From the IMG/VR virus record IMGVR_UViG_3300029843_000306: 18,144 nucleotides of DNA. The stretch is one strand, 5' to 3'. Each line of letters begins with the position of its first letter. Positions within the stretch are counted from its first letter, which is position 1. Under the pieces are notes generated by a model, which was not told the origin of the DNA, searched no databases, and saw only the letters and a program-made list of their open reading frames with translations. A program made the translations under genes and the position numbers. Source of the stretch: a virus (Duplodnaviria > Heunggongvirae > Uroviricota > Caudoviricetes). This document shows, in pieces, positions 1 to 18,144 of the stretch.

Positions 1-234
1 ATGAAATCAAAAGACACCCTAAAGTGGTTCCCTGCGCAGCTTCCTGAAGTAAGAATTATCCTAGGGGATGCTGTAGTGGAAGTAGCAAAACAGGGAAGAC
101 CTATCAATACCAGAACATTGCTTGATTACATTGAAGGAAACATAAAGAAAAAATCATGGCTGGATAACAAAGAATTATTACAAACAGCGATATCAGTTCT
201 TAAAGACAACCAAAATTTAAATGGTAAAATGTAA
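1..234 (+). CDS. ydfK: Small prophage protein of the YdfK/YnaE family (cold-shock inducible in K-12)
   Basis: 77-aa ORF from the ATG at position 1; sequence recognised from memory as the YdfK/YnaE paralog family; lies next to pin as in Qin and Rac. Confidence 0.75.
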   Translation: MKSKDTLKWFPAQLPEVRIILGDAVVEVAKQGRPINTRTLLDYIEGNIKKKSWLDNKELLQTAISVLKDNQNLNGKM

Positions 235-550
235 TATAATAAACTTACTTTTTTATCATTTTTCCACTTTAACAACATTTTGCTCCACTTTTCCACGACC
301 AAACAACTTGAAATCTGGTTAAAATAACACGCAACACTATTCTTCTTCCTTGAGTCCGCCCGGAACTCGAAAAACAAACCGAGTTAAAGCCATTTTTCAC
401 AAAATCGATTTTGGGTCTCACCAAAATTACGGGGTTGCATACGCATTCGTTTATTTTCGAACGTGTACATACAAATATGCACAAAAATAATCATAATTAT
501 TTTCTGAGATGCATTATGATATGAACACCAATTTCGTATAGAGTCTCACT

Positions 551-1141
551 ATGTCTCAAATTTTTGCTTACTGTCGGATATCAACGCTGGATCAGACCAC
601 CGAAAATCAACGCCGGGAAATCGAAAGTGCAGGTTTTAAAATCAAACCTCAGCAAATAATCGAAGAACACATTAGCGGCTCAGCAGCAACCAGTGAGCGT
701 CCTGGTTTTAACCGGTTGCTTGCTCGCCTGAAATGTGGTGATCAATTGATTGTGACAAAACTGGATCGCCTTGGTTGTAATGCAATGGATATCAGGAAAA
801 CAGTGGAACAACTGACCGAAACAGGTATCAGAGTGCATTGCTTAGCATTGGGGGGCATTGACCTGACCAGTCCAACAGGAAAAATGATGATGCAAGTAAT
901 TTCAGCAGTCGCTGAATTTGAACGAGACCTTTTACTTGAACGCACTCATTCCGGGATAGTAAGAGCCCGCGGCGCAGGGAAACGTTTTGGTCGACCACCT
1001 GTGTTAAATGAAGAACAGAAACAGGCGGTATTCGAACGAATTAAGTCAGGTGTAAGTATAAGTGCCATTGCCCGGGAATTCAAAACCTCGCGGCAAACCA
1101 TTTTAAGAGCCAAAGCAAAACTTCAGACACCTGACATATAA
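551..1141 (+). CDS. pinQ: Pin-type serine recombinase (DNA invertase, Hin/Gin/Cin/Pin family)
   Basis: 196 aa; N-terminal catalytic-serine motif ([10 protein letters not shown]) and C-terminal HTH ([17 protein letters not shown]); adjacent to tfa/stf as for pinQ/pinR/pinE. Confidence 0.93.
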
Positions 1142-1238
1142 AAAATAATCTCGGTGTGAGATGCTTTACGTCTTCCAAGCCCCCTTCCTTGCCGTAAATG
1201 GAAAGATACATCTAATTATAGAATTTATATGTTTTACC

Positions 1239-1814
1239 CTACGGCAGTGCTGGCCATTCAATATCCTGTGCAGTTGACGTATCAACACGGTTCAGCAATA
1301 CCCGATACTTTTTCCATGCTTCCAGCAACGAGATTTCTTCCTCCGTTGCAATTTCCAGATCTGCAGCATCCTGAAGCGGCGCAATATGCTCACTGGCTAC
1401 CTGCATCAGGTTGTTTTTTGTTTCTTCCGCCTCCCGGATCCGGAACAGTTTTTCTGCTTCCGTATCCTTCACCCAGGCTGTGCCGTTCCACTTCTGAAAC
1501 TCCCCTTCCGGCGATAACCAGGTAACATTTTCCGGTAACGGACCGAGTTCAGAAATAAATAACGCGTCGCCGGAAGCCACGTCATAAACCGTTTTACCCC
1601 GATGATCTTCAACGAGATGCCACGATGACTCATCACTGTTGAAAACAGCCACGAAGCCAGCCGGAATATCTGGCGGTGCAATATCGGTACTGTTTGCTGG
1701 CAGACCTGTATGAGGCGGAATATATGCATCACCTTCACCAATAAATTCATTAGTTCCGGCCAGCAGATTATAAATTTTTATGGTCCGTGGTTGTTCACTC
1801 ATTCTGAATGCCAT
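1239..1814 (-). CDS. tfaQ: Tail fibre assembly protein (Tfa)
   Basis: 191 aa; sequence recognised as lambdoid Tfa; its ATG overlaps the stf stop (TAATG) at 1812-1816, the usual stf-tfa coupling. Confidence 0.9.
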
Positions 1815-2716
1815 TATGCAAGCCTCACAATATAGTTAAATGCGATGTTTTTGACGGTGTTTTCCGCGTTACCAGCAGCGTTAACGGTGATGGTGTGTCC
1901 ATGTGAACCAATCGCAACGGAGTGCGTATGAGCACCAATACCGACAGTATGTGCATGTGCGCCTGCGCTTGCAGCAGTGCCGGACAGCGAGTGGGTATGA
2001 GCACCATCTGATGATGTCTTCCCTGCATTACGAGTCTGGCCACTACCGCTTGTTGTGCTCATAATCCCCGCGCTTAGATTTGAAATCGCGGTATAACCAT
2101 TAGGGAAAATGCTCGTGTTCGTGCCACCAAATGCACCGGAACTCTTGTGTTGGTGCGCACCGGCACTATTTGCGGTCCCGCTAATACTATGGGTATGCGC
2201 CCCGGTGTTATTCGTGGATTTGGTTCCGTAATCAAACGACGATGTGGTTTTCGTCCCCAAATCCGTACTGGATGCGCTGGCGCTGTGGGTGTGCGATTTA
2301 ATGCCGTCCTGTTCCTGAGATAATACGGCCCGACCACTGGCGGGCTTGCCCTTAATCGTCCAGCCACGCATATCAGGGATCACGCCTGACGGATAAGCAA
2401 CTGCAAGTTTCGGGTATGCAGATTTGTCAAAAGTCTGCCCCTGCATCAGGGCATAACCAGACGGAACGGTATCTGATGGCCACGGGATTGGTGCACCGAC
2501 TGGATAAAACTCTGCAGGAGGATGAGCCGAGGTGTAAAGCTGCGCCCACGGCGACCAGTTTGCGTCGGTCGTATCCCGTCGTGAACAAATAAATGCCGGA
2601 GCATGAGCACCGCTTGTACCACTCCAGCCGATGAGTAACTCACCTTCGCCAACGGCTGTCATCCCTTTCAGGTGAATGATATTTCCATACGCTGTTGGAT
2701 ATCCGTTGTTATACAC
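1814..2716 (-). CDS. stfQ: Side tail fibre protein, C-terminal receptor-binding remnant (N-terminally truncated)
   Basis: 300-aa ORF with repeated G-A-H-T-H-S / H-x-H motifs typical of Stf C-termini; no ATG start (GTG at 2716), and in-frame Stf-like sequence continues upstream to a stop near 2777, so this is a fragment. Confidence 0.8.
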
Positions 2717-2726
2717 CTCGTATAAC

Positions 2727-3877
<1,151 letters not shown>

Positions 3878-3899
3878 TGTTCATTCCACGGCCAAAAAC

Positions 3900-4075
3900 A
3901 GAGAAAGGAAACGACAGAGGCCCAAAAGCTCGTTTTCAGCACCTGTCGTTTCCTTTCTTTTCAGGGGGTATTTTAAATAAAAACATTAAGTTACGACGAA
4001 GAAGAACGGAAATGCCTTAAACCGGAAAATTTTCATAAATAGCGAAAACCCGCGAGGTCGCCGCCCCGTAACCTG
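3900..4075 (-). other. cos site: cosN cohesive end (GGGCGGCGACCT, complement of 4055-4066) with the flanking cosB/cosQ-like region
   Basis: Minus-strand sequence ACGGGGCGGCGACCTCGCGGGTTTTCGCTATTTATGAAAATTTTCCGGTTTAAGGC… sits directly upstream of Nu1 and matches the lambda left end as I recall it. Confidence 0.8.
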
Positions 4076-4265
4076 TCGGATCGCCGGAAAGGACCCGCAA
4101 AATGATAATAATTATCATCTGCATGTCACAACGTGCATCTACGCCATCAAACCACGTCAAATAATCAATTATGACGCAGGTATCATATTAATTGATCTGC
4201 ATCAACTTAACGTAAAAACAACTTCAGACAATACAAATCAGCGACACTGAATACGGGGCAACCTC

Positions 4266-4499
4266 ATGTCAACGAAGAACAGAACCCGCAGAACAACAAC
4301 CCGCAACATCCGCTTTCCTAACCAAATGATTGAACAAATTAACATCGCTCTTGAGCAAAAAGGGTCCGGGAATTTCTCAGCCTGGGTCATTGAAGCCTGC
4401 CGCCGGAGACTGTGCTCAGAAAAAAGAGTTTCTTCTGAAGCAAACAAAGAAAAGAGTGACATTACTGAATTGCTCAGAAAACAGGTCAGACCAGATTGA
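4266..4499 (+). CDS. ynfO: Small putative ribbon-helix-helix DNA-binding protein
   Basis: 77 aa; N-terminal basic stretch, then a beta-strand/helix/GSG-turn/helix pattern (RNIRFPNQMIEQINIALEQKGSGNFSAWVIEACRRRL) typical of Arc/CopG folds; fold is inferred from sequence pattern. Confidence 0.65.
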   Translation: MSTKNRTRRTTTRNIRFPNQMIEQINIALEQKGSGNFSAWVIEACRRRLCSEKRVSSEANKEKSDITELLRKQVRPD

Positions 4500-4556
4500 A
4501 GCAATTTAGATAATCGTGCAGACTACGCCCCCTCATATCACATGGAAGGTTTATCT

Positions 4557-4967
4557 ATGGATCAGGTAGTCATTTTTAAACAAATATTTGATAAAGTTCG
4601 AAACGATTTAAACTATCAATGGTTTTATTCTGAGCTAAAACGTCACAATGTCTCACATTACATTTACTATTTAGCCACAGAGAATGTTCATATTGTATTA
4701 AAAAATGATAATACAGTGTTATTAAAGGGCCTAAAAAACATTGTGTCTGTCAAATTTTCAAAGGATAGGCATCTTATAGAAACGACCTCTAATAAGCTGA
4801 AATCCAGAGAGATCACATTTCAGGAATACAGAAGAAACCTTGCTAAAGCAGGAGTTTTTCGGTGGGTTACAAATATCCACGAACAAAAAAGATATTACTA
4901 TACCTTTGATAATTCATTACTATTTACTGAAAGCATCCAGAAAACTACACAGATCTTACCACGCTAA
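4557..4967 (+). CDS. ydfO: DUF1398-family prophage protein
   Basis: 136 aa from the ATG at 4557 (GGAAGG Shine-Dalgarno upstream); sequence recognised as YdfO; the track ORF starts 5 codons earlier. Confidence 0.8.
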
Positions 4968-4975
4968 ACCATAAC

Positions 4976-5015
4976 GTCCGGCTTCTCTCACTCCTGAGCC
5001 GGACTGCATTGGTTT
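4976..5015 (+). terminator. Candidate hairpin terminator after ydfO
   Basis: 8-bp stem GTCCGGCT (4976-4983) / AGCCGGAC (4997-5004) followed by a moderately T-rich tract. Confidence 0.35.
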
Positions 5016-5118
5016 AATAAAAACCATCAACAATTGTGATTTAGATATTCGGAACCATTCAAATATAACAAAACCCCGTAAAAACGAGGTTTATGGATAA
5101 ATTTTATTATTGAATACA

Positions 5119-5292
5119 TCAGATTAAATTAATCTTGACATCATAGCTTTCAAGACCCGTCATTTTTTCCCGTGCGGTAAACTGAATACTGGTAACTTCT
5201 TTCCCGGTCTTTTTCTTAAGTTCAATAATTTTTTTTGTTATATATTCAGAAATATCTGCTTCTGCTTTTGTTTTTAAGTTTTCAATATTCAT
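5119..5292 (-). CDS. gnsB: GnsA/GnsB-family small protein
   Basis: 57-codon ORF absent from the track (under 60 aa), translated by hand: MNIENLKTKAEADISEYITKKIIELKKKTGKEVTSIQFTAREKMTGLESYDVKINLI; AGGA Shine-Dalgarno before the ATG at 5292; Gns-like C-terminus. Confidence 0.7.
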   Translation of the reverse strand: MNIENLKTKAEADISEYITKKIIELKKKTGKEVTSIQFTAREKMTGLESYDVKINLI

Positions 5293-5463
5293 CATTTCCT
5301 CTTTTAGTCTGTTATGACTTTCCAGTTACACAGTAAGTCGATTATATGGTGCAAACGTGTAAAAGATAAGATGAAACATCGCAATAATCAACATACGATA
5401 GTCTAAATTTTACACAAACAGACAAAGAGAATTTTCCTGAATTATCAATGCAATAGCATCAAA

Positions 5464-5619
5464 TCAACTCAAGAGCCTTATTGCTGCTTCCAGAATTTCT
5501 TCTGAAGTAACATGTCGATCCGCGGCTACATAAATGACTTTATGATCTCCGGTCAGAGATGGAAACCCTGCGGCCATTACAGTAAGGTGTGTTTTTTCGC
5601 CATTTGGATATTCACGCAT
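5464..5619 (-). CDS. ynfN: Small prophage protein at the K-12 ynfN position (51 aa; possible N-terminal extension to ATG 5694)
   Basis: ORF 5464..5736 in the track; the 51-aa version from ATG 5619 matches the K-12 YnfN length and position (between gnsB and cspI); start choice uncertain. Confidence 0.5.
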   Translation of the reverse strand: MREYPNGEKTHLTVMAAGFPSLTGDHKVIYVAADRHVTSEEILEAAIRLLS

Positions 5620-5740
5620 GATGGTGTTAACTCCAGTCATCGCTGGCACTACCACTGCTGGTTCAGAGTTAAAAAAAACTATGATTTTTTTCATGATGTT
5701 ACCGTAGTATGTGAGTATCCATCGAATAGACACCAAGCAA

Positions 5741-5766
5741 AAAAGCTCCCGAAGGAGCCTTCATTT
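5741..5766 (-). terminator. Rho-independent terminator (UUCG-loop hairpin plus U-tract)
   Basis: Minus strand reads GCUCC-UUCG-GGAGC followed by UUUUUUGC; downstream of cspI and upstream of ynfN. Confidence 0.6.
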
Positions 5767-5965
5767 TCACTTTTTTAAATCCAACGACAGACGGCTGGCA
5801 TTTAAGTATTGTGAAATATTATCAAATGTAATCATCATTGATTTACAAAAGATACATTTTGCCCCGAAAGGATTCATGTCAGAAACATCAAAAGATGATG
5901 TTCTATACTGGGAACCATGACAACACGGGCATCTAAAGTGAATATGGTTTGTAATATTGTCTACC

Positions 5966-6178
5966 TCAAAGCGCCACTACATGAACAGCGGCAGGACCTT
6001 TAGGTCCGTTCTCAATACCAAATTCAACTTCCTGATTCTCAGTTAATGTTTTGAAATCGTTGCTCTGAATTGCTGAGAAATGGACAAACACATCTTTGCT
6101 GCCATCTTTCGGCGTGATGAAACCAAAACCTTTTTCAGGGTTAAACCATTTCACTAAACCAGTCATTTTGTTAGACAT
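5966..6178 (-). CDS. cspI: Cold-shock protein, CspA family
   Basis: 70 aa; RNP1/RNP2 motifs (KGFGFI, VFVHF); sequence recognised as CspI; long AT-rich 5' leader ending AAAGGTAATAATTATG. Confidence 0.9.
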
Positions 6179-6540
6179 AATTATTACCTTTTGAAGAAAT
6201 TAGCCCTTGGGCAGAATGGTCCGAAAAAAAATATCAGAGAGAAAAACCAACAAGGAAATCTCAAGAGGTACAAATAATAAAATTATAACAATGACTGCTT
6301 CAGATAAATTTGTAACAAACCAGAACACCATTAACGCATGATTAACCACCCATAGCAAGGATTACTTTTGTAAAGAAAAACACAGCAATGAAAGAATAGC
6401 TTTATTTATTAATAAAACGTGTCATTCTGATTAAGACCTTTTATCTTACCCTTAAGATTTCAGGAATTTTGGCTCATGGAAGAGTCCTTTTTATTTAAAT
6501 TTTACATTCCGCGATGTAAATGTTCCGATTTAATATTACC

Positions 6541-7564
<1,024 letters not shown>

Positions 7565-7568
<4 letters not shown>

Positions 7569-7876
7569 AGATATTTATGATGAGGACGCTCGTGCTTATT
7601 GGCAGGATTTTCAATCTTAAAGGAGTACTGATGCTGCAGATAAGACTCAACTTTTTCTGACAATTTTTCTGCTACTTCCAGGAAGACTTGCCGGACGCTC
7701 CTTCTGGCTGCTGCCTCATAAAACTCCAGCGCAGCTCCTTCAACACGGTCCATGGCGACATCCAGGTCAAAAATTTCACCGTCAAAGCGTTCTTTGTCCT
7801 GTAAGGCTACAGTTACCGTAACTTTATTCTCAAAATTACGGACTCCTTTCACAACCAGTTCATAGTCTTGAGTCAT
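7565..7876 (-). CDS. ydfR: Prophage protein YdfR (DUF1327) inserted between holin and endolysin
   Basis: 103 aa; sequence recognised as YdfR; stop overlaps the rrrQ start. Confidence 0.75.
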
Positions 7877-7880
7877 TGGA

Positions 7881-8096
7881 TTACTCTCCTCTCGCAGCCT
7901 TACGCCTGTCTTCTTTAATCTTGAAATAAAGATTTGTCAGATACGTCAGCAGGCCAAAAACCAGGCTACCCAGCACACCGATTGCAGCCCACTGTGACGG
8001 AGTTACTTTATCGAGTAACTGCAATGCCCAGAAACCAGCATTACCCGCCGATGTGCCATAGGCAACACCTGTTGTTAACTTATCCATTGATTTCAT
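7881..8096 (-). CDS. essQ: Class II holin (phage 21 S-like pinholin) with dual-start motif
   Basis: 71 aa from ATG 8096 (GGTGAGGA Shine-Dalgarno upstream); begins M-K-S-M, giving Met1/Met4 starts as in S21; two TM segments; the 96-aa track ORF from 8171 is rejected as the start. Confidence 0.85.
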
Positions 8097-8315
8097 ATCC
8101 TCACCCCGATGTACACGGATGGTGCAATATGTTTGAAAAGATCGGAGTCTACGGGGTAGTTTTGACAGCACACGTTGTTCTCAACGGCGCTAAAAAAACA
8201 TACACATTAAAAATGTGGGTAATTATTTTGAAAGAAAGTCATATATAAAATAATAATACGAGAAATGTTTTCATATTTAGTGTACTGTATACGGCCATTT
8301 ATACAGGAAAAGCCT

Positions 8316-8486
8316 ATGTCAGAACGTAAAAACTCAAAATCACGCCGTAATTATCTCGTTAAATGTTCCTGCCCAAACTGCACCCAAGAGTCAGAACACA
8401 GTTTTTCAAGAGTACAAAAAGGTGCCCTTTTGATCTGCCCTCATTGCAACAAAGTATTCCAGACAAATCTTAAAGCTGTAGCCTGA
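8316..8486 (+). CDS. ynfU: Small zinc-ribbon-like protein (two CxxC pairs)
   Basis: 56 aa from ATG 8316 (AGGAAAAG upstream); CSCPNC…CPHC motifs; track ORF 8265..8486 has an implausible N-terminal extension. Confidence 0.65.
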   Translation: MSERKNSKSRRNYLVKCSCPNCTQESEHSFSRVQKGALLICPHCNKVFQTNLKAVA

Positions 8487-8545
8487 TTGATTTTATTAGT
8501 AACAAGTATTTTTTATATTTTAATAATATATTTAAAGCAGATAAT

Positions 8546-8570
8546 AAAAAACCCGCCTGAGCGGGTTTGA
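8546..8570 (-). terminator. Rho-independent terminator between cspB and the lysis genes
   Basis: Minus strand reads AAACCCGC-UCAG-GCGGGUUU followed by UUUUUUAUUAU. Confidence 0.7.
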
Positions 8571-8849
8571 GATTGTGGTGCTTTTTGTGGGAGTCATCCA
8601 CTTACGCACTTTGTTTTGCCATGCCAGCAGTTAGCTTCTGCTGTAAAACTATTCATGCAGCAAACCTGCACTTCACCACAATGGTTAGCATACTTTTCCT
8701 GATTAAGATTTTGCCAAATATGCTAGCCATTGTTTCATGTATTGGACCTCCTTACTTTTTATTAAAGAGATCCAATATTCACTACTCTGTCCGTATCTCT
8801 ACTCAGGCATCAGCCTTCTTCGTTATCGTATACAGACGAGCGATGAATT

Positions 8850-9065
8850 TTAATCAGTAATGATGACATTTGCTGCTGCAGGACCTTTAGCACCACTCTC
8901 TATAGAGAAGGTAACCTTTTGACCTTCAAATAAGGTTCGATAATTATCATTCTGAATCGCAGAAAAATGCACAAACACATCTTTACTACCATCAACAGGA
9001 GAAATAAAGCCGAAACCTTTATCAGCGTTAAACCATTTTACTAAACCAGTCATTTTATTTGACAT
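8850..9065 (-). CDS. cspB: Cold-shock protein, CspA family
   Basis: 71 aa; sequence recognised as CspB; RNP motifs present. Confidence 0.9.
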
Positions 9066-9365
9066 TCTACATTCCTTAACTTGAGCCTTTCGGCATAAAT
9101 GGTTTGCATAACAGAAACGACTTCGTACTTAATTGGAGAGACTCAAAGAAGGAATAAGTGAATAACACCTGAAATGAGAACTGCTTTAGTAAACTACTTC
9201 GTATATCGTCTGTTCTTCAAACCGACGCAATCATTAACGCATAGTTGAACATATGAAGCAATGTTTATTTTAGACATCCAGCCATCTTCAACCCCATCAA
9301 AAAACTATAGCTTTCTTCAGGAACGTGTGTATAGTGCGCCAAGTTATCAGTATTAAGGAATTTTT

Positions 9366-9578
9366 TTGTCCCGTAAAATGACAGGAATTGTCAAAACCTT
9401 TGACGGCAAAAGCGGCAAGGGTCTTATCACCCCATCCGATGGTCGTATCGATGTCCAGCTTCATGTTTCAGCGCTCAATCTCCGCGATGCAGAAGAAATT
9501 ACCACCGGATTACGCGTGGAATTTTGCCGGATAAATGGTCTGCGTGGCCCTTCAGCTGCCAATGTTTACCTTTCATGA
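9366..9578 (+). CDS. cspF: Cold-shock-domain protein, divergent CspA-family member
   Basis: 70 aa; divergent from cspB; degenerate RNP1 (KSGKGLI); sequence recognised as CspF. Confidence 0.85.
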
Positions 9579-9632
9579 GCTATATTAAAGCTTTAATTTC
9601 AGGCCCCATCGGATCACACATGGAGAGTTTTT

Positions 9633-9722
9633 ATGAATAACCCCGTCTGTCTTGATGACTGGTTGATTGGCTTTAAAAGCTTATGCTGTACTTTGGCCGT
9701 AATAGCTCTGCTAATAATATAA
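9633..9722 (+). CDS. Candidate 29-aa hydrophobic small protein ([29 protein letters not shown])
   Basis: ATG at 9633 preceded by GGAGAG at about 7 nt; absent from the ORF track (too short); single predicted TM-like segment; no homology evidence. Confidence 0.3.
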
Positions 9723-9867
9723 TAAGCAGACTCATTGTGTTTAGGGACATTGTACTGGAAGAAAACATTTTAAACATCAGGCAAATAACCAAGTCACCAG
9801 CTAAATAATAAGTTAACAGACATGAGTCCCGGGATGAGATTCAACATTACCATTGCCCCATTTAAAG

Positions 9868-9900
9868 CACAAAACCCGCTCATCAGCGGGTTTTCTACTT
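9868..9900. terminator. Hairpin terminator, candidate tR' of the late operon (also usable as a cspF terminator on the + strand)
   Basis: AAACCCGCT-CATC-AGCGGGTTT (9872-9893) with T-rich flanks on both strands; lies about 40-60 nt downstream of the candidate late promoter. Confidence 0.5.
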
Positions 9901-9934
9901 TTTCTTAACGTCGGGTATACAAAGCCCATCGTTG

Positions 9935-9970
9935 AAAAAATTTTATCCATATTTTTTGAAAAATGCAAAC
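9935..9970 (-). promoter_or_regulatory. Candidate late promoter pR' (sigma-70) just downstream of Q
   Basis: Minus strand -35 TTGCAT (complement of 9963-9968), 17-nt spacer, -10 TAAAAT (complement of 9940-9945); position matches lambdoid pR'/qut. Confidence 0.5.
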
Positions 9971-9999
9971 ATCATGTCGCCATCTTCAGCAAAAATCAT

Positions 10000-10752
10000 T
10001 TATCTCGTCACCTTCCTCAATTGCGCTTCCGCGTATGCTTCTTCCTGCCAGCACTTTGTTACCAGTTTACCAATGACGTCCGCATACCCCTTATACCACT
10101 GATAATCGGTCAGGTCTGGTACCAGCTTCTGGACATGACGTCGTGCCAGCGTGGTCGGTAAACGACTAAACCGGTTTCCATTACAACGCCCACAAATCTT
10201 ATATACCGGTACGCCATGAAACCGGGTTCTTTTTTCATCCAGAACAATCCCTTTACCCTTACACCCTCTGCACGCTGTGCTGGCTTCGCCCTTACCATGG
10301 CAATGCTGACATAGTTCCTTCACCCATTCTTCCTTGATTACAGATTCCCCGCGTCTGTAGTGTTTCACCACTTCGCGCAATACATTATAAAATCCCGTAC
10401 CTGAACAATGCTCACAGCGAGCCTTACTTGCCGCAGACCTGGAGTAATCAGCAAAGGCAAAACTCACGAGGTAAGGAATAATCTGTAACCGGATTTCTTC
10501 ACTCAATTTGTTCAATGTCGGGTTATCCAGTGCCATCGCGTAATTTAGCAGGCCTTCAATCGCAAACTGAGGGTCCTGAACACCAACTTTTGCCAGAAAT
10601 AAGGCCAACCCAAGTGGTGCTTTCGACTGCACCATCCCCTGCGCTGCCATTACATCCGTAATTGTTAAACAACCGGTGCCTGTCGCTGGAGCGTCATCGC
10701 TCAATTTTGGAGATTTTGGGGAGTAATATTTTGGTAAGGCTTCAAGGTTCAT
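10000..10752 (-). CDS. quuQ: Late-gene antitermination protein Q (phage 21/82-type)
   Basis: 250 aa from ATG 10752; multiple CxxC zinc-binding motifs (CEHCSGTG, CQHCHGKG, CRGCKGKG, CGRCNG); sequence recognised as QuuQ; track ORF has a 10-codon extension. Confidence 0.9.
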   Translation of the reverse strand: MNLEALPKYYSPKSPKLSDDAPATGTGCLTITDVMAAQGMVQSKAPLGLALFLAKVGVQDPQFAIEGLLNYAMALDNPTLNKLSEEIRLQIIPYLVSFAFADYSRSAASKARCEHCSGTGFYNVLREVVKHYRRGESVIKEEWVKELCQHCHGKGEASTACRGCKGKGIVLDEKRTRFHGVPVYKICGRCNGNRFSRLPTTLARRHVQKLVPDLTDYQWYKGYADVIGKLVTKCWQEEAYAEAQLRKVTR

Positions 10753-10765
10753 GCTCGTTCTCCAC

Positions 10766-11815
10766 TTACGCCAGTACGCCAATTGTCAGCGCGCGATCGA
10801 TAAAACGAAATATCAGCTCCAGTTGGGAGCCATACTTATCTTCAAATGCCACTGTATCCGTATGCAGCTCGTTGTGATGCTTTCTGCACAAAGGCAACAC
10901 AAAGAGATCATGTGCTTTTGTTCCCATTCCGCCCTGCCCGTGACCAATCAGATGATGCGGATCGTCGGCTGGCATACCGCAGCAAGCACACGGCTGTGTC
11001 TTAACCCAACGTGTGTATTTCTCCTTAACCCAGCGGCGACGTTTAGGCAGCTTCATGAAAGATTCCGGAGACTCTGGATCAACGGTGATGCTTACCACCG
11101 TCTTTTCCTGTGGTGATTTTTGTTGCTGGTGGGCGTAAGGCAACGGTGCAAGATTTTTTGTGCGTTGTTTCAATATGCTGGTGGCGGTCTGCTCTCCCGG
11201 TACGATGTCGCTTTCGCGGTACACCGAGCAGATTTTTTCCGCTGGTAATCCCAGCGAACGACGCGATACAGCCTCAGGTAGTGCATCCACCACCTGATTG
11301 CAGACCGCCCACCAGGATAATTCAGCCAAAGATAATTCCCGCTCCTGCGTACCGCTTATTGCGTGACGGATGACGTCAATCACCCATGCTGTCAGATTTT
11401 GTTGAGCAAGCAGCTCCAGTGATTCCGATGTCTGGTCACGCAGTTGGTTGTCGCAGTGCCAGCACAACACCATTGCGCCGGTACCATAACGGTGAATGAC
11501 TGTTTCAGTGTGATGGTAATCGCCATTAGGCCACTGGCAGGATGTAACATGACGTAATAGCCAGTCGGACAATGCGCCAACGCCGCCAGCAGCACGAATC
11601 ACCCGTTCGTTACTAAAAAACGGCAGCAATGTTTTGTCTTCCGCCAGCGGCTGGCGAACGGCAGGAACGACTCCGGATGGCAGATTACGCATGCTTTTTG
11701 GTTCCGGTTCCACCAGCACTCGAGGATTATGAAATATCTGTATGGATTCACGGCCCGGCTTAAGGACCACCAGCCCAAGCTCAGGCACCAGAACAGGTCT
11801 AAGTAATACCCGCAC
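10766..11815 (-). CDS. ydfU: DUF968-family protein with HNH-like nuclease motif
   Basis: 349 aa from GTG 11815 (track ORF extends to 11854); C-terminal HNH-like motif CACCGMPADDPHHLIGHGQGG…CRKHHNELH. Confidence 0.75.
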   Translation of the reverse strand: MRVLLRPVLVPELGLVVLKPGRESIQIFHNPRVLVEPEPKSMRNLPSGVVPAVRQPLAEDKTLLPFFSNERVIRAAGGVGALSDWLLRHVTSCQWPNGDYHHTETVIHRYGTGAMVLCWHCDNQLRDQTSESLELLAQQNLTAWVIDVIRHAISGTQERELSLAELSWWAVCNQVVDALPEAVSRRSLGLPAEKICSVYRESDIVPGEQTATSILKQRTKNLAPLPYAHQQQKSPQEKTVVSITVDPESPESFMKLPKRRRWVKEKYTRWVKTQPCACCGMPADDPHHLIGHGQGGMGTKAHDLFVLPLCRKHHNELHTDTVAFEDKYGSQLELIFRFIDRALTIGVLA

Positions 11816-11816
11816 G

Positions 11817-12095
11817 TTACCTCCAGATCCGTTGCTGGAAAGTGCGGGACGCACGTGGTGGGCGTTCGGAATAAGGCAGCCTGACAGAGATTATCCAGTG
11901 CCGATAGTCGAGACTGAGAGCTTTCTTAACCTCGAACCCGCGCCTGCGGTAAGAATGAATCAGCCATTCGGCCTGTTCTGCAGTGCATGGAGGGTGCTGG
12001 AACCATTCAGACTTGAATGCGTGAGAATACCGCCCGTGCGTGCAGGCAAGAACGGGCGAATTATCAGAATTGTAATATTTTGCGTTGCGTGCCAT
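11817..12095 (-). CDS. Hypothetical small protein with Cys/His residues, upstream of and abutting ydfU
   Basis: 92-aa ORF with GGAG Shine-Dalgarno 5 nt before ATG 12095; stop abuts the ydfU start; no family assignment made. Confidence 0.5.
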   Translation of the reverse strand: MARNAKYYNSDNSPVLACTHGRYSHAFKSEWFQHPPCTAEQAEWLIHSYRRRGFEVKKALSLDYRHWIISVRLPYSERPPRASRTFQQRIWR

Positions 12096-12161
12096 CGGTT
12101 TTCTCCGGTGGCACGGTGTTACTCAGCGGGAGTTCAGCCCCGCGCAAGATTGTAGATGAGT

Positions 12162-12413
12162 TTATTCTCCTGAAAAAGCAGAAAAGCCAGCTTTTATTCC
12201 GATCTCTTTCAATGCCTGTAATGAAGTGACAAACTCACCTTCGCGCAAGATAAATCCGTCCGTGACCCGAGCATCCACAAAATTAATTAACGCAGCCCCA
12301 TTCTTTCGCAAACACATAATGCGGTAATGACTAACAAGATTTCCATTTTCAACGCACACAGCATAGAGGCCATCTTCACAAAAAATTTTACGCAGTTCTT
12401 CGATGTTCATCAT
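12162..12413 (-). CDS. rem: Small prophage protein Rem
   Basis: 83 aa; position between ydfU and hokD and length match K-12 rem; sequence identity is from recollection only. Confidence 0.6.
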   Translation of the reverse strand: MMNIEELRKIFCEDGLYAVCVENGNLVSHYRIMCLRKNGAALINFVDARVTDGFILREGEFVTSLQALKEIGIKAGFSAFSGE

Positions 12414-12539
12414 CAGAATCCTTCCGGATAATTAGCTCTCCCCTTTAAGGGACCATCCCTCTTATCCCTGCGCGCTACTTAAGTATTTTTGATTCTATTC
12501 CGGCACCGTCCAGAACTTCAAACGCGTTGAAAATAAAAA

Positions 12540-12565
12540 CAAAAACCCGCCGAAGCGGGTTAAGT
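12540..12565 (-). terminator. Rho-independent terminator of the relB-relE-hokD operon
   Basis: Minus strand reads ACCCGC-UUCG-GCGGGU followed by UUUUGUUUUUAUUUU. Confidence 0.8.
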
Positions 12566-12629
12566 GCGGGTGCGTTGAGGATGCCTGCCACATCAGAGGT
12601 GGCGAGGGATTTCTCCCCCGCCGGGTCTC

Positions 12630-12785
12630 TTACTCCTCAGGTTCGTAAGCTGTGAAGACAGCGACCTCCGTCTGGCCGGTTCGGATTCGTACCTCGCAGA
12701 GGTCTTTCCTCGTTACCAGTGCCGTCACTATGACGGTTAAACAGATGACGATCAGGGCGATTAACATCGCCTTTTGCTGCTTCAT
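12630..12785 (-). CDS. hokD: Hok-family type I toxin (small membrane peptide)
   Basis: 51 aa translated by hand: MKQQKAMLIALIVICLTVIVTALVTRKDLCEVRIRTGQTEVAVFTAYEPEE; absent from the ORF track; downstream of relE as in relBEF. Confidence 0.85.
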   Translation of the reverse strand: MKQQKAMLIALIVICLTVIVTALVTRKDLCEVRIRTGQTEVAVFTAYEPEE

Positions 12786-12856
12786 AGCCTGCTTCTCCTG
12801 TCAACGCAAAGCAGAAGTGTCACCTTCGGTGCGAAACAGAGATGTCATGCTTTGGT

Positions 12857-13144
12857 TCAGAGAATGCGTTTGACCGCCTCGCTATATACTTCCGAGCGTT
12901 CTCTTTTCCCAACAGAAATCACGAAAACGACAACTTTCTCGTCTATAACCTGGTATACAAGGCGATAGCCTGAAGACCGGAGCTTAATCTTGTAACAATC
13001 AGGCATACCACGGAGCTTGTTTGCTTCAATCCGGGGTGACTCAAGTACTTCAACCAGCTTCTTTTTCAACTGTTCACGTACCGTCGAGCCCAGCTTTCGC
13101 CATTCCTTTAGTGCCCGCTCGTCAAAATCCAGAAAATACGCCAT
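12857..13144 (-). CDS. relE: RelE mRNA interferase toxin (type II TA)
   Basis: 95 aa; sequence recognised as RelE; start overlaps the relB stop (ATGA). Confidence 0.95.
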   Translation of the reverse strand: MAYFLDFDERALKEWRKLGSTVREQLKKKLVEVLESPRIEANKLRGMPDCYKIKLRSSGYRLVYQVIDEKVVVFVISVGKRERSEVYSEAVKRIL

Positions 13145-13383
13145 CAGAGTTCATCCAGCGTCACACGTACTGGCTTAGGATTACGAAGCCGTTCTTTCAC
13201 TATCTCCACAAGTTCAGCATCTTCATCACTCAGGAGTGTCTGTTTGAACGGCAAGCGTTCATTGTCAGCGATATACTCGAGCATGAGACGAAGCGCTTCA
13301 GAAGGAGTTACACCCATTTTTTCAAGCGCGGCGTAAGAACGCGCTTTAAGTTCATCGTCAATACGCAGGTTAATGCTACCCAT
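13144..13383 (-). CDS. relB: RelB antitoxin (RHH family)
   Basis: 79 aa; sequence recognised as RelB; AAGAGGTG Shine-Dalgarno upstream. Confidence 0.95.
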   Translation of the reverse strand: MGSINLRIDDELKARSYAALEKMGVTPSEALRLMLEYIADNERLPFKQTLLSDEDAELVEIVKERLRNPKPVRVTLDEL

Positions 13384-13385
13384 GT

Positions 13386-13440
13386 CTTACACCTCTTGTA
13401 ATTACAAATGTCATTACAAGTATCGCACTACAACATGCTT
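13386..13440 (-). promoter_or_regulatory. relBE promoter/operator region (relO-like repeats)
   Basis: Repeated TTGTAAT/TACAAG hexads (CTTGTAATTACAAATGTCATTACAAG on the + strand) directly upstream of relB. Confidence 0.55.
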
Positions 13441-13713
13441 AGGGCAAGTCACGAAGGAAGTCAGAAAGTAGTCGTAAGAACGGTGATCACTGTCCGCTTT
13501 GTGCCAGGAGCAGCCATTGCTAAGTCCATCCTGTATTGTGCAGGTCAGCTCGTTTTTAAAGAGTCCGGCCATCATCTTACTGGTACAGACACCATATACT
13601 TTGTGACGGTCAGGCTACATATGCACAACTCAACTTATTCATCTATTTTTTGCTTTAGCATGTCAGTGTTGCTTTCTCGTCGGCGGGTGAGCGGTGACCT
13701 GACCTGTCGATAA
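13408..13713 (+). CDS. ydfV: Hypothetical ORF at the position of K-12 ydfV (weak coding evidence)
   Basis: 101-aa ORF starting inside the relB operator; no recognisable domain; listed only because the equivalent ORF is annotated in K-12. Confidence 0.25.
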   Translation: MSLQVSHYNMLRASHEGSQKVVVRTVITVRFVPGAAIAKSILYCAGQLVFKESGHHLTGTDTIYFVTVRLHMHNSTYSSIFCFSMSVLLSRRRVSGDLTCR

Positions 13714-13865
13714 AGGAACGTAACACGTTTTATGCAACACCCGCATGCGGCAGAAAATTATTGCCGAACGTTTACCCCTGTCAACAAGCTTTACTTTCTG
13801 AGGCGCGCCAGCCCGCGAGGAAAACAATCTGAACATCAAACAATTAATGACACAAGAAATACGAT

Positions 13866-13892
13866 TAAAGATTTTTTTGTGCATGCCGATAG
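13866..13892 (+). promoter_or_regulatory. Sigma-28 (FliA) class promoter of flxA
   Basis: TAAAGATT (13866-13873), 11-nt spacer, GCCGATAG (13885-13892), against the consensus TAAAGTTT-N11-GCCGATAA; GGAG Shine-Dalgarno and ATG follow. Confidence 0.75.
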
Positions 13893-13915
13893 TGCTTTTT
13901 TAAAAGGAGAAATCT

Positions 13916-14248
13916 ATGTCTGTCACAATTCAGGGAAATACCTCAACCGTTATTTCAAACAACTCCGCCCCGGAAGGAACATCAGAAATAGCCAAAATCA
14001 CAAGACAAATTCAGGTGCTGACTGAAAAGCTTGGGAAAATCTCATCGGAAGAGGGGATGACGACACAGCAGAAAAAAGAAATGGCTGCATTGGTACAGAA
14101 GCAAATTGAAAGCCTCTGGGCTCAACTGGAGCAGTTGTTAAGGCAGCAGGCAGAGAAAAAGAATGAAGACGCGACAGTTCAGCCTGATAAAAAAGAAGAG
14201 AAAAAAGACGATACAAATACCGCTGGCACCATTGATATTTACGTCTAA
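13916..14248 (+). CDS. flxA: FlxA (FliA-regulated protein of unknown function)
   Basis: 110 aa; sequence recognised as FlxA; coiled-coil/charged composition. Confidence 0.9.
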   Translation: MSVTIQGNTSTVISNNSAPEGTSEIAKITRQIQVLTEKLGKISSEEGMTTQQKKEMAALVQKQIESLWAQLEQLLRQQAEKKNEDATVQPDKKEEKKDDTNTAGTIDIYV

Positions 14249-14261
14249 GTGACAGCCGTAT

Positions 14262-14290
14262 TGTGGCCCTCATCGGGCCACTTTTCGCCA
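14262..14290 (+). terminator. Rho-independent terminator after flxA
   Basis: GTGGCCC-TCATC-GGGCCAC followed by TTTTCGCC. Confidence 0.65.
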
Positions 14291-14537
14291 TCAGCCTTTT
14301 CTTTAAAGACATATTATCTTTGTATCATTTCTGATAGTTAACATTACAAGATATAAGTAATGGACGCACTCCCAATTAGTCTATTTAAATCGCCACGAGT
14401 TTAACTGACAACCCATGATCAATTATGAATTGCAACTATTTCTGTAGTCACTTTTGTGGGGACAGTCCACAAAACTGCCAACTTCCGCTTCTTGCTCTTA
14501 GCGGACATTAGCATAGGCTATTTATCCGGAGCTTAAG

Positions 14538-16505
14538 TTGCACGCCATTGGGTGGGTTAAGCATAAATGTATTCCTGGTGCTAAATGGCCCGAAATTCAG
14601 GCAGAGATGCGCATCTGGAAAAAACGTCGCGAAGGTGAACGCAAGGAAACCGGAAAATACACGTCTGTTGTTGATCTCGCCCGCGCCAGAGCCAATCAAC
14701 AGAACACTGAAAATTCAACAGGAAAAATCAGCCCGGTCATTGCTGCCACTCATCGCGAATACAAGCAGACATGGAAAACACTGGATGACGAACTGGCCTA
14801 CGCTCTCTGGCCTGGTGATGTGGATGCCGGAAACATTGACGGCAGCATCCATCGCTGGGCAAAAAATGAAGTTATCGACAACGACCGCGAAGACTGGAAG
14901 CGTATCTCGGCATCAATGCGCAAACAGCCTGATGCCCTTCGCTACGACCGCCAGACTATTTTTGGCCTTGTCCGTGAACGTCCGATCGACATTCACAAAG
15001 ACCCTGTGGCACTGAACAAATACATTACTGAATACCTGACTACAAAGGGCGTGTTTGAAGATGAAGGAAGAAATCAGAGCGCAACTGATACTCTCTCGTC
15101 GCCAGTACCAGAAACTGATGCAGTGGAAACGGCAATTCCGGACAACGAAAAAACCGAATGCAAAGTGGAAGTCGAACCATCTGTAGAGCGTGAAGGGCCG
15201 TTCTACTTCCTCTTCACCGACAAGGATGGCGAAAAATACGGTCGCGCAAACAAACTTTCTGGTCTGGATAAGGCACTGGCTGCAGGGGCTACTGAAATCA
15301 CGAAAGAAGAATATTTCGCCCGCAAAAACGGTACATACTCAGGTTCACAACAAAATACTGGTGCATCTGACACGACCGCACAACCAGAGCCGGTAAAAGT
15401 TACCGCTGACGAAGTAAACAAAATTATGCAGGCAGCCAATATCAGCCAGCCTGACGCCGATAAGTTGCTTGCTGCATCACGTGGTGAATTTATTGAAGGG
15501 ATTAGCGACCCGAATGATCCGAAATGGGTTAAGGGGATCCAGACCCGCGATACTGTGAACCAGAACCAGCAAGAAACGGAACAGAACGACCAGAAAGCGG
15601 AACAAAACAGCCCAAATACGCAACAAAACGAGCCAGAAACGAAACAACCTGAACCAGTAGTGCAACAGGAACCGGAAAAAATCTGCACCGCCTGCGGTCA
15701 GAGCGGTGGTGGCAACTGCCCTGATTGTGGTGCGGTGATGGGCGACGCAACATACCAGGAAACATTCGATGACAAGAACCAGGTTGAAGTTCAGGAAGAC
15801 GATTCGGAGAAAATGGAAGGCGCTGAACATCCACACAAGGAGAATGCTGGCAGCGCTCAGGACCACGCCAGCGATAGTGAAACTGGCGAGATGGCAGATC
15901 CCTTAATTACGGTGAACGGTCATCACGTTATCACATCCACCAGCAGGACTTGTGACCATCTAATGATCGACCTTGAAACCATGGGAAAAAATCCTGATGC
16001 CCCGATTATCTCAATAGGTGCAATATTTTTCGATCCGCAAACCGGAGATATGGGACCGGAATTTAGTAAGACTATCGATCTGGAAACTGCTGGCGGAGTC
16101 ATTGATCGGGACACCATTAAATGGTGGCTTAAGCAATCACGCGAAGCGCAATCTGCCATTATGACCGATGAAATCCCGTTAGATGATGCACTGTTACAAT
16201 TGCGGGAATTTATCGACGAAAACTCCGGTGAATTTTTTGTTCAGGTTTGGGGAAATGGAGCCAACTTCGACAACACGATTTTGCGCCGTTCATACGAACG
16301 GCAGGGGATCCCCTGCCCGTGGCGTTACTACAACGATCGCGATGTACGCACAATCGTTGAGCTGGGAAAAGCCATGGACTTCGATGCCAGAACGGCTATT
16401 CCATTCGAAGGTGAGCGCCATAATGCACTTGATGACGCCCGTTACCAGGCAAAATACGTTTCAGTTATCTGGCAAAAACTGATCCCGAGTCAGGCTGATT
16501 CTTAA
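14538..16505 (+). CDS. Large early-region protein: N-terminal domain of unknown function, disordered acidic/Gln-rich linker, CxxC…CxxC zinc ribbon, C-terminal DEDDh (DnaQ-like) 3'-5' exonuclease domain
   Basis: 655-codon ORF; start is TTG 14538 (GGAG 8 nt upstream) or ATG 14607; C-terminus carries DLETMG, GNGANFD and H-NALDDA motifs of the DEDDh fold; zinc ribbon CTACGQSGGGNCPDCG. Confidence 0.7.
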   Translation: MHAIGWVKHKCIPGAKWPEIQAEMRIWKKRREGERKETGKYTSVVDLARARANQQNTENSTGKISPVIAATHREYKQTWKTLDDELAYALWPGDVDAGNIDGSIHRWAKNEVIDNDREDWKRISASMRKQPDALRYDRQTIFGLVRERPIDIHKDPVALNKYITEYLTTKGVFEDEGRNQSATDTLSSPVPETDAVETAIPDNEKTECKVEVEPSVEREGPFYFLFTDKDGEKYGRANKLSGLDKALAAGATEITKEEYFARKNGTYSGSQQNTGASDTTAQPEPVKVTADEVNKIMQAANISQPDADKLLAASRGEFIEGISDPNDPKWVKGIQTRDTVNQNQQETEQNDQKAEQNSPNTQQNEPETKQPEPVVQQEPEKICTACGQSGGGNCPDCGAVMGDATYQETFDDKNQVEVQEDDSEKMEGAEHPHKENAGSAQDHASDSETGEMADPLITVNGHHVITSTSRTCDHLMIDLETMGKNPDAPIISIGAIFFDPQTGDMGPEFSKTIDLETAGGVIDRDTIKWWLKQSREAQSAIMTDEIPLDDALLQLREFIDENSGEFFVQVWGNGANFDNTILRRSYERQGIPCPWRYYNDRDVRTIVELGKAMDFDARTAIPFEGERHNALDDARYQAKYVSVIWQKLIPSQADS

Positions 16506-16577
16506 TGTTCAACTGTCGCCGGTTGTGACTGGTATTCTGCAACCGGCGCTCGTCTGATGTAAGAGATAAAGAAATCG

Positions 16578-16829
16578 ATGAGCGAAGTAATCATGATTGT
16601 CTCTCCCGGCAAATGGGTATCCGAAGAGCAGTTAATTGCGCTGAAAGGAATAAAAAAAGGTACGTTAAAAAAGGCCCGGGAAAAATCGTTTATGGAAGGA
16701 AGGGAATATAAGCATGTCGCTCATGACGGTATGCCATGGGATAACAGTCCATGCTTTTACAACCTGGAAGAAATTGATCGCTGGATTGAGCGCCAGGCAT
16801 CAGCGAGACCAAGACGTCATCTTACTTGA
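16578..16829 (+). CDS. Excisionase-like / small DNA-binding protein upstream of int
   Basis: 83-aa ORF directly upstream of and co-oriented with the integrase; basic; family assignment is by position and general resemblance only. Confidence 0.5.
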   Translation: MSEVIMIVSPGKWVSEEQLIALKGIKKGTLKKAREKSFMEGREYKHVAHDGMPWDNSPCFYNLEEIDRWIERQASARPRRHLT

Positions 16830-16863
16830 CTAAAAGCCACACTAACTAATGAGAGAAGTTGAA

Positions 16864-18144
16864 ATGAAATATCCGACAGGCGTGGAAAACCATGGAGGGA
16901 AATTACGTATCTGGTTTGTTTATAAAGACGTAAGAGTCAGGGAAAATCTGGGGGTTCCTGACACAGCAAAAAACAGGCGCGTTGCAGGTGAACTACGCTC
17001 CTCTGTTTGTTACGCAATAAAAACTGGTGTTTTCGACTATGCAAAACAGTTTCCCTCCTCACGCAATCTGGAAAAATTTGGTGAGGCCCGACAAGATTTA
17101 ACCATAAAAGAACTGGCTGAAAAATTTCTGGCACTGAAAGAAACTGAAGTCGCCAAAACATCACTCAACACATACCGTGCCGTCATCAAAAATATCCTGA
17201 GCATAATCGGTGAAAAAAATCTTGCCTCATCGATTAATAAAGAAAAATTACTGGAGGTTCGTAAAGAGTTACTGACTGGATACCAGATCCCCAAAAGTAA
17301 CTATATTGTTACACAACCAGGGAGATCGGCTGTAACTGTAAATAATTACATGACAAATCTTAACGCCGTGTTCCAGTTTGGTGTTGATAACGGTTACCTG
17401 GCAGATAATCCGTTTAAGGGGATCTCGCCATTAAAGGAATCAAGAACCATTCCGGATCCTCTTTCGCGGGAAGAATTTATCCGTCTTATCGATGCGTGCA
17501 GAAATCAGCAAGCAAAAAATTTATGGTGTGTTTCTGTTTATACTGGAGTTCGCCCTGGTGAGCTGTGTGCACTTGGATGGGAGGACATAGATCTGAAAAA
17601 TGGAACAATGATGATCAGGAGAAATTTAGCAAAAGACCGTTTCACGGTACCAAAAACACAGGCGGGAACCAATCGGGTCATTCATCTTATTAAGCCAGCA
17701 ATCGACGCTCTCCGGAGTCAGATGACATTAACGAGACTGAGCAAAGAGCATATCATTGATGTTCACCTCAGAGAGTATGGCAGAACAGAAAAACAAAAAT
17801 GCACCTTTGTTTTTCAACCTGAAGTGTCAGCGAGAGTAAAAAATTATGGTGACCATTTTACCGTTGACTCAATAAGGCAGATGTGGGACGCAGCGATAAA
17901 ACGTGCCGGACTCCGCCATCGAAAATCATATCAGTCGAGACATACTTATGCCTGCTGGTCGCTGACAGCTGGTGCTAACCCGGCATTTATAGCAAACCAG
18001 ATGGGCCATGCAGATGCGCAAATGGTATTTCAGGTATACGGAAAATGGATGTCTGAAAACAATAATGCACAGGTAGCTTTGTTAAATACACAGTTAAGCG
18101 AGTTTGCCCCAACCATGCCCCATAACGAAGCAATGAAAAATTAA
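16864..18144 (+). CDS. Tyrosine site-specific integrase (phage integrase family), apparently full length
   Basis: 426 aa from ATG 16864 (track ORF starts at 16849 without a Shine-Dalgarno); C-terminal catalytic motifs R (VYTGVRPGEL), H-x-x-R (SRHTYA) and Y (VYGKW); window ends at its stop codon. Confidence 0.9.
   Translation: MKYPTGVENHGGKLRIWFVYKDVRVRENLGVPDTAKNRRVAGELRSSVCYAIKTGVFDYAKQFPSSRNLEKFGEARQDLTIKELAEKFLALKETEVAKTSLNTYRAVIKNILSIIGEKNLASSINKEKLLEVRKELLTGYQIPKSNYIVTQPGRSAVTVNNYMTNLNAVFQFGVDNGYLADNPFKGISPLKESRTIPDPLSREEFIRLIDACRNQQAKNLWCVSVYTGVRPGELCALGWEDIDLKNGTMMIRRNLAKDRFTVPKTQAGTNRVIHLIKPAIDALRSQMTLTRLSKEHIIDVHLREYGRTEKQKCTFVFQPEVSARVKNYGDHFTVDSIRQMWDAAIKRAGLRHRKSYQSRHTYACWSLTAGANPAFIANQMGHADAQMVFQVYGKWMSENNNAQVALLNTQLSEFAPTMPHNEAMKN

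Follow-up and report, generated by a model that had tools for sequence, protein, structure and literature searches.

An orphan lambda-type cos site in a deleted variant of the Qin prophage of Escherichia coli

A Qin remnant shortened by three deletions

The stretch of DNA analysed here (18,144 nucleotides, below called the window) is part of Qin, the cryptic lambdoid prophage of E. coli. Its positions 1-14524 are 99.99% identical to E. coli LR-58-1, the nearest complete genome. According to the RefSeq annotation of LR-58-1, the gene order is ydfK, pinQ, tfaQ, stf', J', a truncated small terminase subunit, ynfO, ydfO, gnsB, ynfN, cspI, rzpQ, rrrQ, ydfR, ess, cspB, cspF, ydfT, ydfU, rem, hokD, relEB, ydfV and flxA. 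The chromosomal setting in related genomes is the rspB-ydfJ interval. The Qin region of K-12 MG1655 and the window are 99.8-99.9% identical (99.8% over 6.1 kb). Rfam matches at the gathering threshold were an IS009 inside tfaQ (1273-1471, minus strand) and cspA-type thermoregulator leaders upstream of cspI and cspB (5939-6324 and 8834-9226, minus strand).

The same prophage DNA is found in a phage, PhiR42_1 (PV340562.1; 48.7 kb), which combines the early and late genes of Qin with complete Nu1, A, W, B, C/Nu3, D, E, the tail genes, stf, tfa and pin. It also carries int, xis, exoVIII, ydfD/C/B, dicA- and dicC-like repressors, relBE, hokD, rem and ydfU, as well as Q, cspB/F/I, lysis genes and a cos. 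PhiR42_1 13041-24194 differs from window 3371-14524 at only two of 11,154 positions (99.98% identity), and window 3371-7300, which comprises cos, the late region and the 5' part of Nu1, matches the phage base for base. PhiR42_1 thus appears to be, in effect, an intact Qin-like temperate phage; its plaque-forming status is taken from the title and host field of the GenBank record and from the description of the PhiR panel. Brenes and Laub (2025) are reportedly the source of the PhiR phages. In PMC13190303, the PhiR series is presented as a set of temperate phages related to lambda that were tested for plaque formation. The near-identity of remnant and phage would mean that Qin remnants are either very young or still exchanging DNA with live phages.

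Compared to PhiR42_1, the window has undergone three deletions. The junctions and the features next to them are as follows.

2768-2770: second deletion junction, J to stf; removes PhiR42_1 41331-45351
2770-3370, minus strand: internal fragment of the tail-tip gene J, corresponding to PhiR42_1 40726-41330
3257-3877, minus strand: Nu1' (NohA-like) open reading frame, 206 amino acids; window 3371-3877 encodes Nu1 residues 1-169, and the tail of 37 residues comes from the J fragment
3367-3375, no strand: first deletion junction, 3' end of Nu1 to the interior of J; removes PhiR42_1 24195-40725 (~16.5 kb, A through most of J; determined by BLAST)
14524/14525: third deletion junction; removes PhiR42_1 4693-13040 with the repressor, cro, cII, the O replication gene and an IS

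The first deletion fused the 3' end of Nu1 to J and in this way created the reading frame of 206 residues with its foreign tail. In the Nu1-derived part, 166 of 169 residues (98%) are identical to lambda Nu1 according to BLASTP, and the Pfam family Phage_Nu1 matches residues 1-164 (E = 3.6e-101). Both the recognition helix (residues 17-24) and the wing (residues 31-39; ranges from PMC9026076) are those of lambda. Nu1' has kept the DNA-binding and oligomerisation parts, but its TerL-binding C-terminus is 12 residues short. At the DNA level, bp ~697 of Nu1 abuts the internal J fragment, which is followed by stf', tfaQ and pinQ. A preliminary description of this DNA had claimed that Nu1 is truncated and that the large terminase subunit and all head genes are lost; both statements proved correct, with 37 unrelated residues following residue 169. 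Among 5426 complete E. coli genomes, the Nu1'-J' junction is rare, with 36 carriers.

At the third junction, DNA downstream of flxA is joined to the interior of exoVIII (recE-like), and the entire immunity, dic and replication region is gone. This junction did not occur in any of the 5426 complete E. coli genomes, nor did the GTDB species representatives contain the corresponding 32-mer. The right end of the window encodes Int (431 amino acids) and Xis (83 amino acids). Both are full-length, contain the expected Pfam domains, and share 100% protein identity with their PhiR42_1 counterparts. The lysis cassette is also kept. The complete remnant, which has no replication, head or tail genes, is estimated at ~20 kb, that is, the window plus about 1 kb at each end as deduced from the comparison with K-12 and PhiR42_1.

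Two observations concern the borders of these segments. First, the DNA of window 14525-18144 is only ~96% identical to PhiR42_1 and LR-58-1, compared to 99.98% identity with PhiR42_1 to the left. Most of the divergence evidently falls within the truncated exonuclease gene, a pattern that suggests a mosaic boundary; at the protein level, Int and Xis are identical to those of PhiR42_1. Second, the breakpoint in stf (...GCGCGGTTA) is common to the window and to Qin of K-12 MG1655, and its partner is bp 719 of Nu1 in K-12 and the J fragment in the window. K-12 retains 22 bp of Nu1 that are absent from the window, and consequently neither form can be derived from the other by a simple deletion. The shared breakpoint suggests a recombination hot spot in stf; a connection of this hot spot with the adjacent Pin invertase is speculation.

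Anatomy of the cos site

The 12-nucleotide cohesive end of lambda, GGGCGGCGACCT, has one exact match in the window, which is located on the minus strand at 4055-4066. A near-match at 13689 was attributed to chance, as it contains two mismatches and the expected mean number of matches with at most two mismatches is 0.75. In an alignment, the window from ~4428 down to 3371 is collinear with lambda (NC_001416) 48141-48502 followed by 1-697, with ~97% identity. Within this segment, window 3902-4096 contains a complete lambda-type cos on the minus strand, with cosQ, cosN, R3, I1, R2 and R1 in this order. The subsites were defined according to Murialdo and Feiss (2022; PMC9026076) and the annotated record of phage 434 (OL657226), and are listed below.

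4090-4096, minus strand: cosQ, the packaging-termination subsite (GGGTCCT), equivalent to lambda 48473-48479; exact, and at lambda spacing to cosN
4053-4068, minus strand: cosN, that is GGGCGGCGACCT (4055-4066) with symmetric flanks of 2 bp; exact match
4002-4017, minus strand: R3 of cosB, the critical TerS binding site (lambda bp 50-65); 15 of 16 positions identical, G54A at window 4013
3981-3993, minus strand: I1 of cosB, the IHF site (lambda bp 74-86), with the plus-strand sequence AAACATTAAGTTA; identical to lambda
3943-3958, minus strand: R2 of cosB (lambda bp 109-124), inverted relative to R3 and R1; identical to lambda
3902-3917, minus strand: R1 of cosB (lambda bp 151-166); identical to lambda
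3877, minus strand: ATG of Nu1

The extent of cosN follows the definition of a 16-bp site that consists of the 12 bp and flanks of 2 bp (PMC9026076). The phage 434 record places R3 at 50-65, I1 at 74-86, R2 at 108-123 and R1 at 151-166. A scan with Rfam gave no match at cos. The preliminary description had reported an apparently intact cos at 3900-4075. The intactness held up, since every subsite is present and R3 carries the only change within a subsite; the interval given for it covers cosN and cosB and ends ~20 bp before cosQ.

A base-by-base comparison with lambda, which included R1-R3 and the IHF site, revealed no substitution in cosN and no loss of an R site. The sequence from lambda 48487 through bp 53 is unchanged in the window. 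All spacings from cosQ to R2 are those of lambda, and not a single insertion or deletion was found from cosQ to bp 137. Between cosQ and the ATG of Nu1, the window deviates from lambda in eight places, namely T48486C, G54A, A73G, T102C, G134A, a 1-bp deletion at 138, T145G and T176G; a ninth difference, A48471G, lies 2 bp outside cosQ. The sole substitution within any R site is G54A. R3 spans bp 50-65, TerS contacts bp 55-63, and mutations that impair packaging have been found at bp 56, 58 and 59 (PMC9026076); G54A is thus located outside the contact zone.

Each of the differences from lambda recurs in phage 434 or in PhiR42_1. Phage 434 has all of them other than G54A, among them A73G, T102C, G134A, the 1-bp deletion at 138, T145G and T176G, and G54A is common to PhiR42_1 and Qin of K-12. 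Position 53, which is adjacent to G54A, is variable in phage 434 and DLP12. In an alignment with the annotated R boxes of phage 21, the R boxes of the window show many differences, which marks the site as lambda-type and not as phage 21-type.

A further feature became apparent from the comparison with K-12. Over 6.1 kb, the window and Qin of K-12 differ at 11 positions, all of which fall into window 4083-4185; on the cosQ side, this interval begins 17 bp away from cosN. At 11 of these 11 positions (lambda 48384-48486), K-12 Qin has the base of lambda. On the cosB side, bp 54 is the first informative position, and it is Qin-type in both the window and K-12. The crossover between the patch and Qin-type DNA is thus confined to a 70-bp interval that contains cosN. 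Such a one-sided tract extending from cosN is consistent with what cutting at cos and subsequent repair from a lambda-like template would leave; the rationale for a tract of this kind beside cos is given in PMC3945230. The patch could also be an old mosaic boundary rather than a footprint of repair. An origin of the patch in the K-12 laboratory lineage was ruled out: the same allele is present in UMNK88 and in other non-K-12 strains, and the event is therefore not a laboratory artefact. Next to the patch, 217 bp of the window (4186-4402, inside ynfO) are 100% identical to lambda 48167-48383. This stretch is flanked by diverged DNA on the ynfO side (lambda 48124-48166) and by the patch of single-nucleotide differences on the cos side, and represents another small mosaic block shared with lambda.

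Competence of the site and its expected fate

The exact cosN with its flanks, the spacing of cosQ, the arrangement R3-I1-R2-R1 and the lambda-type R boxes constitute the full set of sequence features of a lambda-specificity cos. The Qin cos is very probably competent for a terminase of lambda specificity. Judged by its sequence, its packaging specificity is that of lambda and not that of phage 21, because its R boxes diverge strongly from those of phage 21 and the helix and wing of Nu1' are identical to those of lambda. Phage 434 has the same packaging specificity as lambda (Feiss et al. 2015; PMC4669245).

We consider it likely that the Qin cos is a recent relic, and no maintained device, that has stayed competent for lambda specificity, and that cutting, abortive packaging and recombination are to be expected from it, but not the transfer of an island. 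The anatomy of the site, its identity to the cos of a functional phage, the missing genes and the lack of a partner cos in the genome used as a proxy for the flanking DNA are observed. From the identity to the PhiR42_1 cos and from the literature, we infer cleavage and abortive packaging at the site. Its survival is probably due to the position of the ~16.5-kb deletion that took away A through J, which starts within the 3' end of Nu1, a short distance downstream of cos. The preliminary description had implied that its retention is surprising. A remnant that shares 99.98% of its bases with a live phage along 11 kb has had no time for decay, and the surprise is unwarranted.

The expected course of events can be outlined by analogy to lambda, where TerS and IHF act on cosB, TerL nicks cosN, and terminase stays with the cosB end, docks to a prohead and translocates the DNA (PMC4669245). 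Termination of packaging requires cosQ and cosN of the next cos (PMC4669245). At the Qin cos, the trigger would be infection by a phage of lambda specificity (lambda, 434, phi80 or a PhiR42_1-like phage) or induction of such a phage as a co-resident. TerS of this phage and IHF would assemble on R3-I1-R2-R1, and TerL would then nick cosN. The cosB-bearing end would be threaded into a prohead toward lower coordinates, that is, through Nu1', J', stf', tfaQ, pinQ and ydfK into host DNA. Because there is no second cos in register, the motor would stall at headful, and the product would be a tailless, non-infectious particle. The free cosQ-side end would be recombinogenic, so that the realistic output would be an exchange of cos and the late region with incoming phages, and not the transfer of an island. 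Both outcomes have been described. A helper of the same specificity that starts at a single prophage cos packages the adjacent host DNA and, after stalling at headful, yields a tailless, non-infectious particle; a crossover downstream yields a recombinant phage instead (Feiss et al. 2015; PMC4669245). For Qin, the frequency of recombinant phages is given as about 1e-6 (PMC3945230).

The DNA that would be packaged was deduced from LR-58-1, which served as a proxy for the flanking DNA and diverges from the window past 14524. In this genome, the path leads through ydfJ, dcp, marRAB (~17-18 kb), the lsr operon (30-38 kb) and hipBA (~45 kb). A second cosN-like site was found neither within 50 kb downstream nor within 55 kb upstream in LR-58-1, and for this reason productive transduction or a satellite-like transfer is not expected.

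It might be argued that the site looks intact and is nevertheless used by no terminase in vivo, either because G54A weakens R3 or because a lone chromosomal copy is inaccessible, and that it is without any consequence. G54A does lie inside the annotated 16 bp of R3, which is the R site most sensitive to mutation (PMC9026076). However, the identical cos of PhiR42_1 adjoins a complete packaging module, bp 54 is neither among the contacted nor among the sensitive positions of R3, and the neighbouring bp 53 differs in phage 434 and DLP12. Moreover, helper terminase does use chromosomal prophage cos sites (PMC4669245). We therefore regard an inert site as improbable.

Even less credible is the idea that the host has been selected to keep the orphan cos, together with a Nu1' impaired in TerL binding, as a decoy that wastes or poisons the terminase of superinfecting phages of lambda specificity. 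Initiation at a prophage cos does reduce the yield of viable progeny (Feiss et al.; PMC4669245), and a protein that has kept its DNA-binding and oligomerisation parts without the last 12 TerL-binding residues would suit such a role. However, there is no sign of selection in a region that is simply 99.98% identical to a live phage. The Nu1'-J' form is confined to 36 of the 5426 genomes, the junction in K-12 is a different one, and one chromosomal cos would be a weak sink in the presence of many replicating phage genomes. An interfering function of this kind is thus very unlikely.

The preliminary description had proposed that a functional cos could allow packaging or mobilisation by a helper in the manner of a cosmid or a satellite. 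The first part of this proposal is supported insofar as a terminase of lambda specificity should bind and cut the site; the second part is not. For a mobilisation, the ~20-kb remnant would have to excise by means of its own Int and Xis, to be packaged through cos, for example as a ~40-kb dimer, and to be transferred. A lambda head packages roughly 38-51 kb. Two times 20 kb would lie inside this range, Int and Xis are full-length and at the protein level 100% identical to those of PhiR42_1, and the cos is predicted to be competent. However, a 20-kb monomer would be much too small for packaging. The immunity and replication segment with the O gene (PhiR42_1 4693-13040) is deleted, so that neither concatemers nor multimers are expected. 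A replication gene was not found among the annotated or called open reading frames of the window, and the genes annotated in window 1-14524 include no primase-replicase, AlpA or Rpp. With a single cos and no partner cosN nearby in LR-58-1, transfer of the remnant appears extremely unlikely. The locus is chromosomal, no plasmid replicon gene was seen, and the remnant does not correspond to a cosmid-like replicon. Among the attributes of phage-inducible chromosomal islands (PICIs), the remnant has a full-length integrase and excisionase with predicted activity. Its annotated genes are those of a standard Qin and include no replication module or hijacking gene, and its cosB is not distinct from that of a helper. 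In known cos-type islands, Rpp redirects the helper TerS to a different cosB (PMC9026076); in contrast, the cosB of Qin is lambda-type. Taken together, helper-dependent mobilisation of a ~40-kb dimer or maintenance of cos and Nu1' for interference with phage packaging deserves hardly any credence, its positive support being the intact Int and Xis and the arithmetic of 2 x 20 kb.

Orphan cos sites in E. coli and comparison with known systems

The situation found in Qin is not an isolated one. A 233-bp segment of the lambda-type cos was detected at 8799 places in 4591 of the 5426 complete E. coli genomes, with a median of two per genome. For the lambda-type large terminase, a segment from the middle of the gene was found at 4734 places in 3339 of these genomes. 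From these two numbers it follows that roughly half of the lambda-type cos copies appear to be orphans, i.e. to lack a lambda-type large terminase gene, an estimate that depends on the sensitivity of megablast, with partial hits being counted and divergent A alleles possibly being missed. Orphan cos sites thus seem to be about as common in complete E. coli genomes as cos sites accompanied by terminase.

A literature search for 'docL/docR' particles returned unrelated papers only. Lambda terminase on the E. coli chromosome is said to have been the subject of Kotani et al. (1992), the rescue of cos mutants by a defective prophage that of Fisher and Feiss (1980), and lambda qin111 that of Espion et al. 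(1983). Orphan prophage cos sites are already known and widespread in E. coli, and the scenario outlined above is explicit in Feiss et al. 2015 (PMC4669245). The Qin case is a further example of an orphan lambda-type cos, here in a variant of a well-known cryptic prophage, and little is at stake. Orphan cos sites are probably live substrates for swaps of cos segments between resident remnants and incoming lambdoid phages. They would also mark chromosomal positions where cutting is expected during growth of any phage with matching specificity. For studies on the decay and recombination of cryptic prophages, the near-identity to PhiR42_1 and the K-12 patch that ends at cosN may be more useful.

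The cos of the window and that of lambda agree in the subsites, their order and orientation and the spacing from cosQ to R2, and the DNA-binding domain of the adjacent TerS is the same. The window differs from lambda in that its cognate Nu1 is truncated, that A and all head genes are absent, and that it shows eight small changes between cosQ and the ATG as well as A48471G. With PhiR42_1, the window shares the whole cos and the Int and Xis proteins without any difference. In contrast to the window with its three deletions, the phage possesses complete Nu1, A, head and tail genes and the immunity and replication region.

Qin of K-12 (nohA-cos-ynfO) is the same prophage at the same chromosomal site, with identical cosN and cosB including G54A. 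It differs in three respects: bp 719 of Nu1 is joined straight to stf without a J' fragment; the dic immunity region, which is absent from the window, is kept; and the patch identical to lambda (48384-48486) is located beside cosN.

The cos-type PICIs of E. coli (PMC9026076) resemble the Qin remnant as chromosomal elements with a lambda-like cosN and a dependence on helper capsids. However, PICIs excise, replicate and carry Rpp, whereas the remnant has neither a replication module nor an annotated Rpp-like gene. In the helper system of the Feiss laboratory, a chromosomal cos of matching specificity is used by helper terminase, as is expected for the Qin cos. In that system, the helper phage packages the DNA between the cos sites of tandem chromosomal prophages (PMC4669245). 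Productive packaging there requires two tandem prophages, whose cos sites are one genome length apart; Qin has one cos.

DLP12 with its cos-nohD region is likewise a defective prophage that carries a lambda-type cos and no working large terminase subunit. Unlike the window, it has retained a Nu1 homologue of full length along with a short piece of A, and its cos contains C53T and T85A in place of G54A. In crosses between DLP12 and lambda, 10 of 19 recombinant junctions were next to cos, and nu1 of DLP12 was functional in lambda (De Paepe et al.; PMC3945230).
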